Notes: a model not told the origin generated them from the letters alone. 25,117 nt of DNA from Patescibacteria group bacterium (GCA_038056915.1 JBBUEO010000023.1:1-25117), one strand, 5' to 3'; shown: positions 19,015-25,117, numbered from the stretch's first letter. Made by a program: numbers and translations.

Positions 19015-19980
19015 ATGAATTTTGCTAGAAAAAAAATTTTTATCACCGGCGGGGCCGGTTTTATTGGCTCTCATATTGTTGATGAACTTCTTTTAGAAAA
19101 ACCGGGACAAATTGTGGTTTTTGATAATTTTATCCGCGGCACTAAAGAAAATCTTAAAGAGGCCTTGAAATCAAAAAAAGTCAAAATTATTAAAGGCGAT
19201 ATCACTAATTTTTCTCATCTTAAACGAGCAATGAAGGGGACAGATTTTATTTTTCACGAGGCGGCTTTATGGCTTTTGGAATGTGAAGATAAACCCCGCC
19301 AGGCGATTAATATCAACATTATTGGCGCTTATAATGTCTGTCAGGCGGCAATTGACAACAAAGTCAAAAAAATTGTTGCCGCTTCTTCCTCAAGCGTTTA
19401 TGGCGACGGTCTTTATTTTCCGACTGATGAGAACCATCCTTTTAATAATTATCTCTTCTACGGCGCCACCAAGGTGGCAAACGAGCAATTCTATCGGGCT
19501 TTTTGGAAGCGTTATGGCCTAAATTACGTGGCTTTGCGATATTTAAATGTTTACGGACCGCGTCAGGATTATCGTTCGGCCTATATTTCGGCAATTATGA
19601 ACTTTATCAATAAATTGGCTAAGGGCGAGCCGCCGATAATTTTCGGCGACGGCACCGCTACTATGGATCTAATTTATGTTGGCGATGTTGCCCGGGCTAA
19701 TATTTTGGCTCTAAAATCAGCGGTGACGAACGAGGCATTCAATGTTGCTTCGGGTAAAGAGACAACTGTTAAAGAGCTGTTAGATATATTAGCCGATCTT
19801 ATGGGCAAAAAAGAAATTAAACCGATTTTTCAACCTCGCGACAAAAAACTGGTTTCCCGCCGTTTTGGCGACGCTCGCAAAGCACGAAAAATGTTGGGCT
19901 TTCGAGCCGAAACCTCTGTTCGAGAGGGGATGAAGAAAGTGATAGAGTGGAGAAATAAAATAGAAAATTCTAAATCCTAA
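19015..19980 (+). CDS. Extended SDR NAD-dependent epimerase/dehydratase
   Basis: TGGAGFIG, ASSSSVYG, catalytic YGATK, LRYLNVYGPRQ. Confidence 0.93.
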   Translation: MNFARKKIFITGGAGFIGSHIVDELLLEKPGQIVVFDNFIRGTKENLKEALKSKKVKIIKGDITNFSHLKRAMKGTDFIFHEAALWLLECEDKPRQAININIIGAYNVCQAAIDNKVKKIVAASSSSVYGDGLYFPTDENHPFNNYLFYGATKVANEQFYRAFWKRYGLNYVALRYLNVYGPRQDYRSAYISAIMNFINKLAKGEPPIIFGDGTATMDLIYVGDVARANILALKSAVTNEAFNVASGKETTVKELLDILADLMGKKEIKPIFQPRDKKLVSRRFGDARKARKMLGFRAETSVREGMKKVIEWRNKIENSKS

Positions 19981-20117
19981 TTTCTAAATCCTAAATAAAT
20001 CCCAAATCATAAATTTTAAAAAATTAAAATCGTTAGGATTTCGAAACCTATGGTTTTAAACATTAGAATTTTGAATTTAGATATTGTTTAGAATTTAGTA
20101 TTTCGTGCTTAGGATTT
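19965..20117. repeat. Heptamer-periodic imperfect inverted repeat, copy 1 (153 bp)
   Basis: Left arm AAATTCT AAATCCT AATTTCT AAATCCT AAATAAATCCC. Right arm, reverse-complemented: AAATCCT AAGCACG AAATACT AAATTCT AAACAATATCT. Includes the upstream stop codon (19978-19980). Confidence 0.9.
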
Positions 20118-20124
20118 AAAAACT

Positions 20125-21294
20125 ATGAATATTCCTATTACCAAACCATATTTTGATGACAAAGAAGCCCGAGCGGTGGCGGAAGTTTTAAAAACCGGCT
20201 GGGTGGTTCAGGGACCTAAAGTAACGGCCTTCGAAATTGCCATTTCCAAATTTACCGGGGCTCCATATTCAATCGCCACTTCTTCTTGTACGACCGGTCT
20301 TCATCTTTGCCTTCGTGCCTTGGAGATCGGTCCGGCTGACGAAGTCATTGTCCCAGCTTTTACTTTTATTGCATCAGCTAACGCTTGCGAATATGTTGGG
20401 GCTAAACCGATTTTTGTTGATATCGAACTTGAGACTTTTAATCTTGACCCGGAAAAAATCACCGAAAAAATCACCAAAAAAACGCGGGCGATTATGCCGG
20501 TTCATCTTTTTGGACTGGCGGCCAATATGGGAGAGATTTTAAAAATAGCCCGGAAATTTCGCTTAAAAATAATCGAAGATGCCGCCTGCGGCATCGGCAC
20601 GAAATACCTGCCTAAGGGCAAGGCAGGCCTTAACCGACATGTTGGTACGATTGGCGATATGGGAGCTTTAAGCTTTCATCCCCGAAAATCCATTACTACG
20701 GGCGAGGGCGGGATGGTGATGACAAAAACAAAAAATTTGGCCGAAAAAATCAAATCCCTTCGTGATCATGGAGCAGTAACTTCGGATTTAGCGCGCCACA
20801 AAAAACAAAGTCATCAATTATCGAAATATCCATATCTTGGCTATAATTATCGTCTCACTGACATCCAGGCCTCTATCGGTTTAGAGCAGGTAAAAAAGCT
20901 TAAAAAAATTCTTAATTTGAGGATCGAGAAAGCCCAAAAATATAATCAAACCTTTAAAAATCATCCATATTTACAGCCGCCGTTTATTCCCGCTTATTCT
21001 AATCATGCTTATCAGTCTTATGTTTTGTTGTTGAAAAAGAACTCGCCTTTAAAAAGAGACGAGATCGCCGAACATCTATCAAAAATCGGCATCGCTGTCC
21101 GTCAAGGAACCCAAAATGTCCCCTTGTTGGATTTTTATCGAAAAAAGTATGGCTTTAAGAAAACTGATTTCCCTAATGCTTTATACGCCGAAAAAAATAC
21201 TCTCACTATCCCTTTGTATAGCCAGATGACAGAAAAAGAACAAAATTATGTTATAGAAAATATCCTAAAAATTTTTAAAAATCCTAAATCCTAA
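20125..21294 (+). CDS. DegT/DnrJ/EryC1/StrS-family PLP sugar aminotransferase
   Basis: GWVVQGP, SSCTTGLH, IEDAAC, SFHPRKSITTGEGG (PLP lysine), GYNYRLTD, TIPLY. Confidence 0.95.
   Translation: MNIPITKPYFDDKEARAVAEVLKTGWVVQGPKVTAFEIAISKFTGAPYSIATSSCTTGLHLCLRALEIGPADEVIVPAFTFIASANACEYVGAKPIFVDIELETFNLDPEKITEKITKKTRAIMPVHLFGLAANMGEILKIARKFRLKIIEDAACGIGTKYLPKGKAGLNRHVGTIGDMGALSFHPRKSITTGEGGMVMTKTKNLAEKIKSLRDHGAVTSDLARHKKQSHQLSKYPYLGYNYRLTDIQASIGLEQVKKLKKILNLRIEKAQKYNQTFKNHPYLQPPFIPAYSNHAYQSYVLLLKKNSPLKRDEIAEHLSKIGIAVRQGTQNVPLLDFYRKKYGFKKTDFPNALYAEKNTLTIPLYSQMTEKEQNYVIENILKIFKNPKS
20607..20627. repeat. 21-nt in-frame palindromic insertion CCTGCCT-AAGGGCA-AGGCAGG
   Basis: Perfect 7-bp stem with a 7-nt loop. 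Removing it restores the family-length GTKYLNRHVG segment. Confidence 0.7.
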
Positions 21295-21399
21295 TTTCTA
21301 AATCCTAAATAAATCCCAAATTATTAATATTAAAAATTTAAACATTAGAATTTTGAATTTAGATATTGTTTAGAATTTAGTATTTCGTGCTTAGTATTT
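21279..21399. repeat. Heptamer-periodic imperfect inverted repeat, copy 2 (121 bp)
   Basis: 21284-21321 is identical to 19970-20007 (38 nt). 21337-21399 matches 20055-20117 at 62/63 nt. Includes the upstream stop codon (21292-21294). Confidence 0.92.
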
Positions 21400-21413
21400 G
21401 GAGCAAAGCAACC

Positions 21414-23213
21414 ATGTGTGGAATCGTTGGCATTTGGCAAAAAAACCCCGTCCCCCAAAAAATCATCCAAAAGATGACGCGGATTTTAGCTCATCGCGGC
21501 CCAGACGATGAAGGAATTTTAATTAATAAAAACATCGGTTTGGGGCACCGGAGATTAAGCATCATTGATCTTACCCCCACTGGCCATCAGCCGATGCTAA
21601 ATGAAGATAAAACCCTGGCAATTGTCTATAACGGCGAAATTTACAATTTTCTCCATATTAAAAAACAACTTCAAAAAAAAGGTTATCGTTTCCGTTCGAC
21701 TTCTGATACCGAGGTCATTCTTTATGCATATCAAGAATGGGGCAAAGATTGTGTCAGACATTTTAACGGCATGTGGGCCTTTGTAATTTACGACCGAAAA
21801 AAGAAGACTTTTTTCGCATCCCGCGATAGAATCGGCATTAAACCGCTATATTATTATTTTGACCAAGAAAAATTGATATTAGCATCAGAAATTAAGGCGA
21901 TTTTAAAATATCCCGGTTTTAAGCGGAAGGTTGATTTGGCGGCTTTAAATGAATATTTTACTTTTCAAAATTTTTGTTCAGACCGAACTTTATTTGATAA
22001 AATTAAAATTCTTCTTCCGGGAACAAATTTGTTTTACAATGGAGATCAGTTAAGAATTGATAAGTGGTGGCAGCCAATTTTTCAAGCTAAAAAATGGTCC
22101 CAAAATGAGCTTAAAGAAATAATTGTCAGTACTTTTCGAGGGGCGATTGATCGTCATTTAATTTCCGATGTGGAAATTGGTTCCTTTTTATCCGGGGGGA
22201 TGGACTCGGCTTCAATAGTTGCTTTGGCTTCGGAAAAAAACCAAGATCTGCGGACTTTCACTTGCGGTTTTGATCTGACAAATGTTTCCGGCATGGAGGG
22301 AGCATTTGATGAGCGAAAGGACGCGGAAATTGTTGCTAAAAGATATAACACCCGCCAATACGAAATGGTTTTACATTCCGGAATGATGGAAAAATCAATG
22401 AAAGATTTAGTCTGGCATCTGGAAGATTTGCGCACCGGCATCTGCCATCATGAATATTGGATTGCCAATTTAGCCGGTCAATTTGTTAAAGTCGCTTTGT
22501 CCGGGGCAGGCGGCGATGAACTTTTTGGCGGCTATCCGTGGCGATATAAAATTATTAAAAATATTCAAAAAAACGGTCAATTCGATAAAATTTATTATGA
22601 TTATTGGTCAAGATTAGTAAAAGATAATGAAAAAACTGATTTTTTTAATAAAAAAATAGCCAAAAAATTTGATTTTTCCAATCCCTTTTTTGAGTATCGA
22701 AAAATTATCGAGCCGGTTGATGAGCTTTTGCCTCTTGATAAAGCTTTCTATTTTGAGCAAAAAACCTTTTTGCCGGGGATATTGCTTGTCGCCGACAAAT
22801 TATCAGCCGCTTTTTCTTTGGAAGAGAGAGTGCCTTTTTTGGATCAAGAAATGATAAATTTATCATTGACAATTCCGGCAGCTTTGAAAGTTCAACAAGA
22901 AACTGGTAAAGTAATTTTACGCAAAGCAATGGCGAAAATCTTGCCCAGAGAGATTGTCAATAAAAAGAAACAGGGCTTTTCTCCGCCAGACGCGAGCTGG
23001 TATCGAGACGAATCCCTGCCTTATATAAAATCAATCATTTTAAGCAAACGAGCGTCGGCAAGACAATATTTTAACCCAAAATTTCTTGAGAAAATTATCC
23101 GCGAACATAGTTTGGGTCAGAAAAATCACCGACTTTTGATTTGGTCATTGCTTTCATTTGAATGGTGGAATCGGATTTTTATCGACGGTGAAAAAGTCGA
23201 AGGACATTCTTGA
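21414..23213 (+). CDS. asnB: Second AsnB-type glutamine-dependent amidotransferase
   Basis: The real start is ATG 21414, since the Ntn Cys must be near the N-terminus (MCGIVG); the ORF-track GTG at 21387 lies inside the repeat. Motifs HRGPDD, SGGMDS, GAGGDE, EERVPFLD; 599 aa. Confidence 0.93.
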   Translation: MCGIVGIWQKNPVPQKIIQKMTRILAHRGPDDEGILINKNIGLGHRRLSIIDLTPTGHQPMLNEDKTLAIVYNGEIYNFLHIKKQLQKKGYRFRSTSDTEVILYAYQEWGKDCVRHFNGMWAFVIYDRKKKTFFASRDRIGIKPLYYYFDQEKLILASEIKAILKYPGFKRKVDLAALNEYFTFQNFCSDRTLFDKIKILLPGTNLFYNGDQLRIDKWWQPIFQAKKWSQNELKEIIVSTFRGAIDRHLISDVEIGSFLSGGMDSASIVALASEKNQDLRTFTCGFDLTNVSGMEGAFDERKDAEIVAKRYNTRQYEMVLHSGMMEKSMKDLVWHLEDLRTGICHHEYWIANLAGQFVKVALSGAGGDELFGGYPWRYKIIKNIQKNGQFDKIYYDYWSRLVKDNEKTDFFNKKIAKKFDFSNPFFEYRKIIEPVDELLPLDKAFYFEQKTFLPGILLVADKLSAAFSLEERVPFLDQEMINLSLTIPAALKVQQETGKVILRKAMAKILPREIVNKKKQGFSPPDASWYRDESLPYIKSIILSKRASARQYFNPKFLEKIIREHSLGQKNHRLLIWSLLSFEWWNRIFIDGEKVEGHS

Positions 23214-23217
23214 GAAA

Positions 23218-23332
23218 AAATCCTAAATCCGAAATCCTAATTTCTAAACAAATCACAAATAACAAACTTTTAAAATTTGAATCATTGGAATTTATAATTT
23301 GTTTAGGATTTAGAATTTAGTGCTTAGAATTT
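23218..23332. repeat. Heptamer-periodic imperfect inverted repeat, copy 3 (115 bp, diverged)
   Basis: Left arm AAATCCT AAATCCG AAATCCT AATTTCT AAACAAATCAC. Right arm, reverse-complemented: AAATTCT AAGCACT AAATTCT AAATCCT AAACAAATTAT. Confidence 0.85.
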
Positions 23333-23340
23333 GGGGTTTT

Positions 23341-23907
23341 ATGGCTATTCTAAAATCTCACGGCACAGGAAAATTTAAAAGAGGTGATTTTCGAAAAATC
23401 GGTAAAAATGTCATTATTGAACCGGAAGTTTTAGTTTTCCATCCGGAAAACATTGAAATCGGCGACAATGTTTATCTTGGTCATCGGACGATCCTGAAAG
23501 CATATTATAAAAATAAAATGATAATTAAAGATAATGTTTGGATCGGTCAAAATTGCTTTCTTCACAGCGCCGGCGGGATTATTATCGGTCCGCGAGTGGG
23601 GGTTGCTCCCGGAGTGATGATGCTTGGTTCCCCTCATGATTTAAGTCAAGATAATTTAGGACCGATAAATGAACTGCCGTTAATTTATAAGCCGATTGAG
23701 ATTGAAGAAGGTTGTGACATCGGCATCGGGGCAATTATATTGGGAGGAGTAATTGTTCGAAGGGGCACTCAAGTCGGCGCCGGGGCAGTGGTGGCCAAAT
23801 CTACCCGACCGTTCTCAATTTTTGCCGGGGTGCCGGCAAAATTTTTAAGAAGGAGAAAAAAAACCAGTAAAAAACAAGATAAAAATACTTATGAAAAAAT
23901 TAATTAA
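23341..23907 (+). CDS. Left-handed beta-helix (hexapeptide) O/N-acyltransferase
   Basis: Hexapeptide repeats IGKNVI/IGDNVY/IKDNVW/IGPRVG, then IGIGAIILGGV, GAGAVV and AGVPAK. Start moved to ATG 23341 because the GTG at 23320 lies inside repeat copy 3 (188 aa). Confidence 0.9.
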   Translation: MAILKSHGTGKFKRGDFRKIGKNVIIEPEVLVFHPENIEIGDNVYLGHRTILKAYYKNKMIIKDNVWIGQNCFLHSAGGIIIGPRVGVAPGVMMLGSPHDLSQDNLGPINELPLIYKPIEIEEGCDIGIGAIILGGVIVRRGTQVGAGAVVAKSTRPFSIFAGVPAKFLRRRKKTSKKQDKNTYEKIN

Positions 23908-25117
23908 AATTATTGGCAATTTTTTTCGATTTTTGTCAGTCGGCCTTTTTTTATTTTTTTGCCCTTGGCAGCCATATTTGGTTGGGTTAGATTTCTTATA
24001 AAAAGACTTTTTGGACTTAAGCCAACAATTTGTTTTTCATTTTTGGGGATTCCTATGAATTTTCTTTCCGCTAAAGCCGTCAGAACTCAAAACTACCTAG
24101 CTGATGTTTATTTTTTGGATTGCCCGGCAGTTTTTATCCCCATGAGCTGGGGCTATAACTTAAGTCAACATCGTTTTTTAAATTTCTTTTTGAAACTGAC
24201 TGATTATTTGCCTTTGTTCTGTTTTGCCCTTTTAAAATACGATATTTTTGAATTTTGTTTTCGGGGCGGATTTTTAATGAATTCGTATTTACAAAAAATT
24301 GAGCCTCAACTTCTAAAAATTTGCGCCAAAAAAGTCGTAATTTATGGTTATGGTTCAGACTGCAAAATTTTATCAGAAGTAAAAAAACAGGGACGATTTA
24401 ACAATGCCATGGATCGAAGCGGCAAAGATGAAAATATTGATGATGAAATCGTTTGTAGAAATCTTTTGCGAGCTAAAAAATACGCTGATGTTTTAATCGC
24501 CGGCGGTGATTTGATCCATTTTGGCCCCAAAGGAATTATGCTTCCCTTGGCCGCTGATTTAGCGCCTTGGAAAGTTTTGCCCACAAATCACAAAAAAGTC
24601 TTGACGATTGTTCATGCTACCAATCATCGAACCCATAAAGGTTCGCGATTTATTATCTCAGCGGTTGAAAAACTTATGACAAAGAAACTGCCGATTAAAT
24701 TTCTCTTAATCGAAGGCAAAAGTTTTAGAGAATGTCAAAGACTTTATCAGGAAGGCGATATTTTTATTACAGATGTTATTACCGGCTGGCATGGCTTGAC
24801 CGCCATCGAAGCCATGGCCTTAGGCCGGCCCGTGATTTCCTATATCAGAAAAGATATTTGGGATTTTCATAAATATTATGCTCGTGATATTCCTTTAATC
24901 AGCGCGAACCCGATTAATCTTAAACAACAAATCATCCGTTTGGTCAATGATTTTACGTTAAGAAGGCAATTGGGTCAAAAAGGAGCCGTTTATGCGAGAA
25001 AATACCATTCTTTAGAATTTGTCGGCAAACTTCGGGTTCTAATTTATGAACATCTCTGGCGGGGCAAAAAAATCAATCAAAGGATTTTTGAGAGAGAGGC
25101 GAAAAGACGGAAATTAA
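23891..25117 (+). CDS. GT-B (GT4-like) glycosyltransferase, apparently frameshifted near 23946-23960, 3' truncated by window
   Basis: Not in the ORF track. Frame 1 is open from 23908 to the window end and encodes KYDIFEF, KKVVIYGYGSDC, IVHATNHRTHKGS and GWHGLTAIEAMALGRPVISYI, paralogous to 8358-9407. ATG 23891 is in frame 2 and stops at 23999-24001. Confidence 0.8.

Follow-up and report, generated by a model that had tools for sequence, protein, structure and literature searches.

The closest described counterparts of the element reported here are the intervening sequences (IVSs) of 23S rRNA genes in Coxiella burnetii and Leptospira (PMC4990558). They have a terminal inverted-repeat stem of about 28 bp that is made up in part of tandem heptamers, carry an open reading frame (ORF) of the PF05635 family in the loop of their long form, and are patchily distributed, as expected for horizontal spread; all of these features recur in our element. 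In Coxiella, the tandem heptamers precede the PF05635-family ORF, and RNase III cuts mid-way in the 28-bp terminal stem that contains them (PMC4990558); PF05635 ORFs also occur in rRNA inserts of bacteria of the candidate phyla radiation (CPR; PMC11270868). A second set of counterparts comprises the GGGNATC heptamer arrays of Xanthomonas and Nostoc (PMC4692102) and the four to five tandem heptanucleotides of Geobacter metallireducens, some of which occur as hairpin pairs (PMC2700814); these have been read as G-quadruplex formers or regulator sites, with no gene linked to them. The rRNA IVSs and their small ORF have gone unexplained for more than 30 years, and the excess of 7-nt repeats in bacterial genomes is likewise unexplained. 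Here we describe a 25,117-nt stretch of DNA from a Patescibacteria group bacterium (GCA_038056915.1 JBBUEO010000023.1:1-25117; hereafter the window, meaning that whole stretch), in which three consecutive gene junctions are filled by imperfect palindromes of 115-153 nt. These palindromes join IVSs and heptamer repeats in one sequence family, which is found in rRNA helices and in gene spacers, with and without the gene.

We consider it probable (about 0.7) that the three repeats are gene-less miniatures of a hairpin-armed, IVS-type cassette inserted between the genes of an operon, with RNA that is likely cut by RNase III. In the full cassette, inverted arrays of four AAATCCT-type heptamers would flank a PF05635/TIGR02436 four-helix-bundle gene, an arrangement shared with the ORF-bearing 23S rRNA IVSs. 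What remains in the miniatures would be the two arms, the 3' trailer, and the leader together with a few opening codons of the ORF, and these miniatures would have been inserted at gene junctions of an O-antigen-like operon.

Coordinates are those of the window, which is a whole contig (C23) of a 583-kb, 42-contig, 81%-complete genome (G000) from a groundwater metagenome; codes of the form Cn denote contigs of this genome. All genomes compared are metagenome-assembled, and short contigs may be mis-binned. The three copies are composed as follows.

19965..20117, + strand: copy 1, gene-less hairpin element, 153 nt (full-length nhmmer match)
19965..19992, + strand: copy 1 left arm, AAATTCT AAATCCT AATTTCT AAATCCT (sequence, heptamer census)
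20090..20117, + strand: copy 1 right arm, four inverted heptamers, of which CGTGCTT is the odd one (20 of 28 positions complement the left arm)
21279..21399, + strand: copy 2, gene-less element, 121 nt (profile match)
21279..21306, + strand: copy 2 left arm, four heptamers, with the DegT stop codon at 21292-21294 (sequence, ORF)
21372..21399, + strand: copy 2 right arm, four inverted heptamers (sequence)
23218..23332, + strand: copy 3, gene-less element, 115 nt (profile match, fold, loose ends)
23218..23245, + strand: copy 3 left arm, AAATCCT AAATCCG AAATCCT AATTTCT (sequence, heptamer census)
23246..23266, + strand: copy 3 inner left core, starting AAACAAATCACAAAT (alignment of long and short forms, covariation)
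23305..23332, + strand: copy 3 right arm, AGGATTT AGAATTT AGTGCTT AGAATTT (sequence, heptamer census)

Each copy comprises four AAATCCT-like heptamers, a core AAA(C/T)AAAT(C/T)(A/C)CAAAT, an AT-rich centre, a mirrored core ATTTG/TTTAG and four inverted heptamers, and Tandem Repeats Finder gives a period of 7 on both arms in all three. An initial annotation, made from the sequence alone, had described this layout. Its coordinates, its layout, its count of 30 complementary positions among 43 in the arms of copy 1 and its gaps of 7, 14 and 8 nt to the next ATG were all reproduced. The odd unit (A/C)GTGCTT (AGTGCTT or CGTGCTT), which it had reported as conserved in the right arms, is second from the right end in every copy, and a profile scan agrees that the first 19 kb of the window contain no copy. 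Copies 1 and 2 are 92-98% identical, with an additional block of about 30 nt in the centre of copy 1; copy 3 is 75-78% identical to the other two, and of the three is nearest to the family consensus. Against dinucleotide shuffles, the copies fold with z-scores of -4.4 (copy 1, -30.8 kcal/mol), -1.4 (copy 2) and -3.2 (copy 3, -20.5 kcal/mol), and thus out-fold the shuffles only moderately. Over the elements, Rfam searched at E up to 1 gave nothing beyond chance-level matches.

Contigs from four groundwater metagenome runs of two studies were compared with the window. Hundreds of loose contig ends lie along the stretch, and the best-supported ones coincide with the ends of the elements: on the left at 19965, 21278/21279 and 23218, and on the right at 20117 and 23332; a right end at 21399 was not reported among the loose ends in these four runs. 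Contigs also accumulate on all three elements, where depth reaches 10-80 times that of the flanks. The termini are thus fixed independently, and many other loci in the samples must carry the element. Chimeric joins are possible with such repeats; here, depth is even over the three junctions, and the first junction is backed by synteny.

The identity of the element emerged from longer forms. In three unrelated organisms (L065, L044 and L035), forms of 463-485 nt have the same arms and core around homologous ORFs of 116-120 aa, which belong to TIGR02436 ('four helix bundle protein') and PF05635 ('23S rRNA intervening-sequence protein'). A link of such repeats to four-helix-bundle genes, mentioned in the initial annotation, was correct and proved the key to identification. 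The genome under study has its own ORF-bearing copy (C26:15746-16117) with an intact 123-aa four-helix-bundle gene, and the left arm of this copy, AAATTCT AAATCCT AAATACG AAATACT AAACAAATCACA, leads directly into the ATG. Short forms align to long forms over the arm, over a stretch that runs from the leader some 20 nt into the ORF, and over the 3' trailer. The inner left core of copy 3, for example, aligns as a homologue of the 5' leader and first codons of the long-form ORF. On the simplest reading of this alignment, the short forms are internal deletion derivatives of the long ones. Four more homologues of the gene (in Omnitrophica, Methanophagales, a Euryarchaeota metagenome-assembled genome and Liptonbacteria) all have AAATCCT-type arms.

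Miniature inverted-repeat transposable elements (MITEs) and small intergenic palindromes such as Correia/NEMIS, RUP, ERIC and the Rickettsia palindromic elements form a further class for comparison. Like these, the window copies are short, ORF-less and multi-copy, have inverted ends, sit at gene ends where they can supply stop codons, occupy sites that are filled in one relative and empty in another, and appear to derive by internal deletion from an ORF-bearing parent; the MITE-like origin offered in the initial annotation fits these data. They differ in that target-site duplications are not found, the arms repeat a 7-nt unit instead of being unique inverted repeats, the copies within a genome are as diverged as those across phyla, and the parent, which shares the element ends, has no recognisable transposase: it encodes a four-helix bundle without known transposase activity.

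Presence of the element tracks a particular subfamily of the gene. The C26 protein subfamily comprises more than 7,900 homologues. The C26 protein is 55-60% identical to the L035, L044 and L065 proteins and at most 45% identical to those three of its paralogues in the same genome that gave a match. No AAATCCT-type arm lies near any of the five paralogues in all (C22:1016-1306 is one of them), and different inverted heptamer words are visible in the flanks of three of the five. Among relatives, an AAATCCT-type arm accompanies 8 of 11 genes whose products are at least 50% identical to the C26 protein, vs 3 of 19 below 50% (P = 0.004), and the best identity to this protein in a genome tracks the number of elements there (Spearman 0.73). 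Across 41 genomes, 27 have both the element and PF05635, one has the element only, three the gene only and ten neither (P = 2.6e-6, by Fisher's exact test). These statistics overstate independence, as the relatives are kin. The single genome with the element and no PF05635 match (G012) has its three full-length copies in a 23S rRNA gene.

On a bolder reading, which is less likely than not, PF05635 proteins would be sequence-specific partners of their own heptamer arrays, each subfamily reading one 7-nt word and moving or maintaining its own cassette and also, in trans, its gene-less miniatures. If this were true, it would define a transposase-less class of mobile hairpin elements common to Bacteria, Archaea and their viruses, and would account for the IVSs of 23S rRNA, for the overabundance of heptamer repeats in the genomes of prokaryotes and for what a very large protein family does.

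Three ORF-bearing loci have peculiarities of their own. At C26:15607-16157 (L180:8608-9158), a complete short element stands on the 3' side of the gene where a simple right arm was expected, and the structure looks nested or duplicated. In the Kryptoniota contig (L035:2397-3677), the four-helix-bundle ORF is open in frame with an upstream folD-like gene through the heptamer arm, and a read-through fusion of the two is possible. The ORF-bearing cassette is also carried by archaeal contigs (L240 and L243, from Methanophagales and another Euryarchaeota metagenome-assembled genome), and that of Methanophagales sits between two glutamate-synthase-like genes on the opposite strand.

Six relatives carry the short element within 23S rRNA genes: G036 (five copies, L295), G012 (three, L288), G027 (two, L300), G024 (L284), G029 (L287) and G022 (L299). 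For G024, where the insertion site was mapped by covariance-model alignment, the element is part of an insert of 146 nt that stands in place of a 6-nt hairpin loop (near model position 282-288), in the manner of classical intervening sequences in rRNA. Thus in at least this relative the AAATCCT family sits at the tip of a 23S rRNA helix. The assembly that contains the window has no 23S rRNA, and the rRNA copies are those seen in relatives. Four heptamers make 28 nt, which compares with the 28-bp stem of the Coxiella IVS, and RNase III is encoded in the genome of the window (C4:2508-2900). The window copies differ from IVSs in lying between protein-coding genes, in being ORF-less, in their number (about 36 per 0.58 Mb) and in forming one sequence family over Bacteria and Archaea; moreover, excision by RNase III has been demonstrated for Coxiella and is predicted here.

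Comparison with relatives distinguishes filled from empty junctions. A genome of another genus of the same family (G007) holds a syntenic cluster, with genes for a family 4 glycosyltransferase (GT4), AsnB, one extra protein, an epimerase and DegT. The proteins shared with the window are 45-69% identical, and those encoded on either side of copy 1 are 67-69% identical. The epimerase and DegT genes of G007 overlap by TAATG, vs 145 nt with copy 1 in the window; this is the only filled junction of the window whose orthologue is available in the relative. The G007 DegT ends in ...LFNQ*, vs ...FKNPKS* in the window, where the final four codons (NPKS) and the stop come from copy 2. No element occurs in the G007 cluster, whose listed spacers all measure 0-57 nt. 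The groES-groEL spacer tells a similar story: it measures 7-52 nt in ten relatives; in about 17 others it contains heptamer palindromes and measures 74-169 nt. Both states occur in one genus (120 nt in G001; 20-22 nt in G007 and G008).

The palindromes in the groES-groEL spacers (L193-L222) are built of at least six unit types across families, for example AAAATGC, AGAAGCT, ACTTTAA and AAATTTC, and some share flank motifs between families (G000, G001, G003 and G018). This spacer may be a hot spot; alternatively, the units of old inserts may be replaced over time.

The content of the glycan cluster departs from that of G007 right after DegT, at copy 2. Between DegT and the next shared glycosyltransferase (21295-23958 in the window vs L238:8398-11055), the window has AsnB-like and acetyltransferase genes, and G007 has a gene of the short-chain dehydrogenase/reductase type and two others. 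This difference is ordinary glycan-cluster variability that starts at the position of copy 2. A break in gene content coincides with an element at this edge of the variable segment; the other edge has none.

The family extends over the whole genome. A scan for heptamer density proved too noisy, returning 118 clusters vs about 20 in shuffled sequence, and was therefore replaced by iterated nhmmer. This located about 36 loci, and in 29-31 of these the length is 80 nt or more, which corresponds to 85% of the detection profile. Together the loci make up 0.6% of the genome, and nearly all are intergenic. Contigs C1, C32, C34 and C40 terminate in or beside a copy, which indicates that the element breaks metagenome assembly. 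Genes flanking the copies encode GroEL, MraW, RuvC, an H+-pyrophosphatase, PilM/PilO and M23 peptidases, as well as sugar enzymes. Five pairs of adjacent junctions are filled, vs 0.63 expected (P = 0.0004), and one triple, that of the window (P = 0.016). This clustering and the near-identity of copies 1 and 2 point to local duplication, which for these two copies would be recent.

Twenty-eight of 41 genomes of the same class contain the family, with up to 32 matches per genome. In a collection of species-level genomes, a 36-nt signature (four heptamers and core) matches at least 120 contigs, several of them of 100-474 kb; those listed belong to many CPR groups, Omnitrophota, Planctomycetota, several 'Deltaproteobacteria', Nitrospirae, Gammaproteobacteria, Elusimicrobia, Chloroflexi, Bacteroidota, Acidobacteriota and a Thermoplasmata archaeon. 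A further 29 viral contigs carry the signature. The family spans CPR bacteria to methane-oxidising archaea. About 96 of some 150 fetched loci have a full-length copy, and many show several copies between consecutive genes, as in the window. Housekeeping functions characterise the 108 flanking proteins at these loci (FtsX, type II secretion system, MreB, MraW, penicillin-binding proteins, FtsA, MurJ, ribosomal protein S13), and no glycan family appears among the 25 families listed for them, a list that includes every family with at least two members. The initial annotation tied the elements to gene boundaries, and this is borne out: 58 of 66 well-placed copies lie between co-directional genes, at a median of 6 nt after the stop codon and 13 nt before the start, with mixed orientation relative to the genes (32 same, 26 opposite). 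In their 7-nt unit, the preference for four units, the dozens of copies per genome, and a position between co-directional ORFs within tens of nt of a stop or start codon, the elements resemble the Xanthomonas, Nostoc and Geobacter arrays; unlike these, they form inverted pairs and are linked both to one subfamily of four-helix-bundle genes and to inserts in rRNA.

The sequence of the arms bears on how such insertions might be tolerated. In a heptamer census, positions A1, A2 and C6 are invariant at 97-99%; the commonest heptamers are AAATCCT, AAATTCT, AAATCCG, AAGCACT and AATTTCT. Each heptamer gives TAA on one arm or TAG on the other, and as a consequence all three frames are closed by stops on 162 of 170 element strands. 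In the window, the last codons and TAA stop of the epimerase gene (ORF end 19980) sit in the left arm of copy 1; the GGAG ribosome-binding site of the gene after copy 2 lies just beyond the right arm, and in the cases read the downstream ribosome-binding site is just outside the element. An insertion would therefore end the upstream reading frame in any phase and stop short of the downstream ribosome-binding site.

In the operon transcript, the element would fold into an imperfect hairpin of 45-55 bp. Most full-length copies, though not all, fold at z-scores of -3 to -8 vs shuffles. Folding energies do not favour the mRNA strand, the antisense being slightly more stable (35 vs 22, P = 0.02). 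The inner stem covaries, the C/T of the left core with the G/A of the right core (C-G 81, T-A 6, T-G 6, C-A 10; P = 0.003). In contrast, in 85 full-length copies the 28-nt arms are complementary in register at 19.4 of 28 positions vs 20.1 of 28 when the order of heptamers is permuted (P = 2e-7), so that the better-than-shuffled pairing expected by the initial annotation did not appear. Together, these results indicate that the inner helix is kept as a helix and the outer arms as arrays of words. The arms nearly always have four units, among which a mismatched unit recurs; this may limit the instability of a DNA palindrome or shape recognition by a protein or RNase. By analogy with the rRNA intervening sequences, the 28-bp heptamer stem would most likely be cut by RNase III, and such cutting would explain why the element is tolerated in both operons and rRNA. 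A role as an mRNA hairpin, one of the options in the initial annotation, thus appears to be the best mechanistic guess.

Several observations weigh against the preferred explanation. Between arms 0.3-4 kb apart we found the four-helix-bundle ORF, and no transposase or other enzyme. The flanks of the 85 copies have no target-site duplication, direct repeat or conserved target motif, and the metagenome DNA contigs contain no empty-site variant and no joint cleanly skipping an element. Arm identity is about 66% both within the genome and across phyla, so a simple recent burst does not fit. The derivation could also run in reverse, the gene having been captured by pre-existing hairpins, and some of the cross-phylum matches on short contigs could be mis-binned. 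Finally, the outer arms are not optimised for pairing, as their stem reflects the shared unit and not unit-by-unit compensation, and copy 2 folds hardly better than its shuffles (z -1.4). Given the lack of a target-site duplication, target motif, known transposase and empty-site variant, we infer movement from the distribution of the element; its mode, and the part that the four-helix-bundle protein may play in moving or keeping the element, should be read at the same strength. No reverse transcriptase (PF00078) was found in the genome, which leaves a resident retro-mobility route unsupported.

The strongest alternative is that the hairpins are not selfish DNA, but modules serving the host, that is, vertically inherited and selected intercistronic structures for RNA processing or stability that uncouple cistrons. 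The very precise placement between stop codon and ribosome-binding site agrees with this, as does the covarying inner stem; the equality of identities within and between genomes is expected under consensus constraint, and the occupation of the groES-groEL spacer in about 17 of 30 relatives, with flank motifs common to families, suggests an old inherited insert. We nevertheless consider it unlikely. Members of one sequence family are found at junctions unrelated to each other and within 23S rRNA, and come from Bacteria, Archaea and viral contigs; orientation is mixed and the sense strand folds no better; close relatives and whole lineages lack the element; and its presence tracks the cognate gene.

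Alternatively, the heptamers may primarily be binding arrays for a protein acting on DNA or RNA, such as the four-helix bundle or a nucleoid protein, with the palindrome as a by-product. That A1, A2 and C6 are nearly invariant while in-register pairing is no better than permuted is what such arrays would show; each four-helix-bundle subfamily has its own unit, and the four-unit arms match the preference for four in published heptamer arrays (PMC4692102, PMC2700814). Set against this, the inner stem covaries as a helix, all elements of G012 are in 23S rRNA and yet the genome has no PF05635 match, and rRNA relatives of the family are processed as RNA hairpins (PMC4990558). We regard this reading as decidedly unlikely.

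It is very improbable that the elements are REP/REPIN-type palindromes (REP, repetitive extragenic palindromic) mobilised by a REP-associated tyrosine transposase (RAYT), an HUH transposase of the Y1 type. REPs and the mosaic elements built from them (BIMEs, bacterial interspersed mosaic elements) are likewise intergenic palindromes in operons, thought to act as mRNA hairpins, and seven ORFs of the genome have weak matches to PF01797, one of them about 290 nt from an element on C17. A REP is, however, recognised as a palindrome of 20-40 nt with a tetranucleotide head, whereas our elements are 100-160 nt, 3-5 times the length of a REP, with AAATCCT-type heptamer ends and no REP-like head. PF01797 occurs in 19 of 28 element-positive vs 5 of 13 element-negative genomes, and is absent from the high-copy genomes G032, G033, G040 and G029. 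Among the gene classes that the initial annotation proposed for checking, PF05635 four-helix-bundle genes are far more strongly associated with the element than RAYT/Y1 genes, whose association is weak at best.

The ORFs with weak PF01797 (Y1_Tnp) matches, of about 225-240 aa, are at C11:6442-6717, C16:353-586, C6:3040-3333, C17:5011-5235, C21:13504-13806, C38:7643-7924 and C8:1940-2170, and relatives hold up to ten such ORFs. They may belong to another repeat system, perhaps that of the small GC-rich hairpins described below.

Integron attC sites are also imperfect palindromes of similar length, 3' of single genes in a co-oriented array. The elements differ from them in their termini (AAATYCT and AGRATTT), in being conserved across phyla in sequence and not in structure alone, and in their housekeeping and rRNA flanks. 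The initial annotation had remarked that attC cores are lacking, and no RYYYAAC/GTTRRRY core was seen by eye, no pattern scan having been run; and the only GTT-containing motif is an internal GTTTAGG. The best match to the integron integrase model TIGR02249, on another contig, scores 95.6 bits vs a cut-off of 265 in this 81%-complete genome, and control genomes are also below the cut-off. TIGR-Tas arrays were set aside, as these have a longer period and variable spacers and are not dispersed single hairpins.

Largely refuted, and the least probable of the explanations weighed, is the proposal of the initial annotation that the elements are recombination sites bounding exchangeable cassettes of the glycan locus: although three consecutive junctions are filled, the near-identical copies 1 and 2 bracket exactly one gene (DegT), gene content leaves the G007 pattern at copy 2, and 9 of about 30 annotated flanking genes in the genome are sugar-related, the family is genome-wide (about 36 copies) and its copies lie mostly beside housekeeping genes, both here and in other phyla, gene content differs in the G007 cluster where no element is present, no element marks the right-hand end of the variable segment (acetyltransferase-glycosyltransferase, 23908-23958), and the metagenome contigs show no joint that cleanly skips a gene between elements.

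A limited literature search found no published description of the element, and only pieces of it are in print: the Coxiella IVS (PMC4990558), heptamer arrays unlinked to a gene (PMC4692102, PMC2700814) and the ORFs of CPR rRNA inserts (PMC11270868). To these the window adds a high-copy family of miniatures with shared arms in both rRNA and operon spacers, junctions filled and empty between genera, and figures for how closely the protein subfamily and the type of arm go together. In practical terms, such elements break metagenome assemblies, add element-encoded residues to gene ends, and may be taken for regulatory RNAs or recombination sites.

The genes around the three copies are as follows.

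19015..19980, + strand: NAD-dependent sugar epimerase/dehydratase (PF01370), 69% identical to the G007 orthologue
20125..21294, + strand: DegT/DnrJ/EryC1-type aminotransferase (PF01041), with copies 1 and 2 on either side, 67% identical to the G007 orthologue
21414..23213, + strand: asparagine-synthase-like amidotransferase (PF00733, PF13537), between copies 2 and 3
23341..23907, + strand: hexapeptide-repeat acyltransferase (PF00132), starting 8 nt after copy 3

Downstream of these, contigs of three runs (X1, X2 and X6), from both studies, have an extra T in the T-run at window position 23945, and in X1 and X2 such contigs make up about 60-65% of the depth. The extra T may reflect an error in the homopolymer or a variant in the population, and bears on the frame shift that the last glycosyltransferase gene appears to need there.

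Some further motifs accompany the elements elsewhere. The sequence TTTAGGT(T/C)AAT(T/C)AG follows the right end of several copies (C40:20-43, C40:3909-3935 and C26:1833-1857), and is also found in the L111 flanks in another organism; it may belong to a longer subfamily or represent a favoured target. Short GC-rich hairpins with a stem of 5-8 bp and a 3-nt loop abut several elements at one end (C8:35485-35500, C8:37930-37943 and C21:19399-19417, and also L034:3706-3892 and L007). In L034 (3706-3892) the two flanks are mutually reverse complementary, including the loop, so that the palindrome runs past the element. GC-rich hairpins are also inserted within some copies (C3:8795-8939 and C21:11897-11983).

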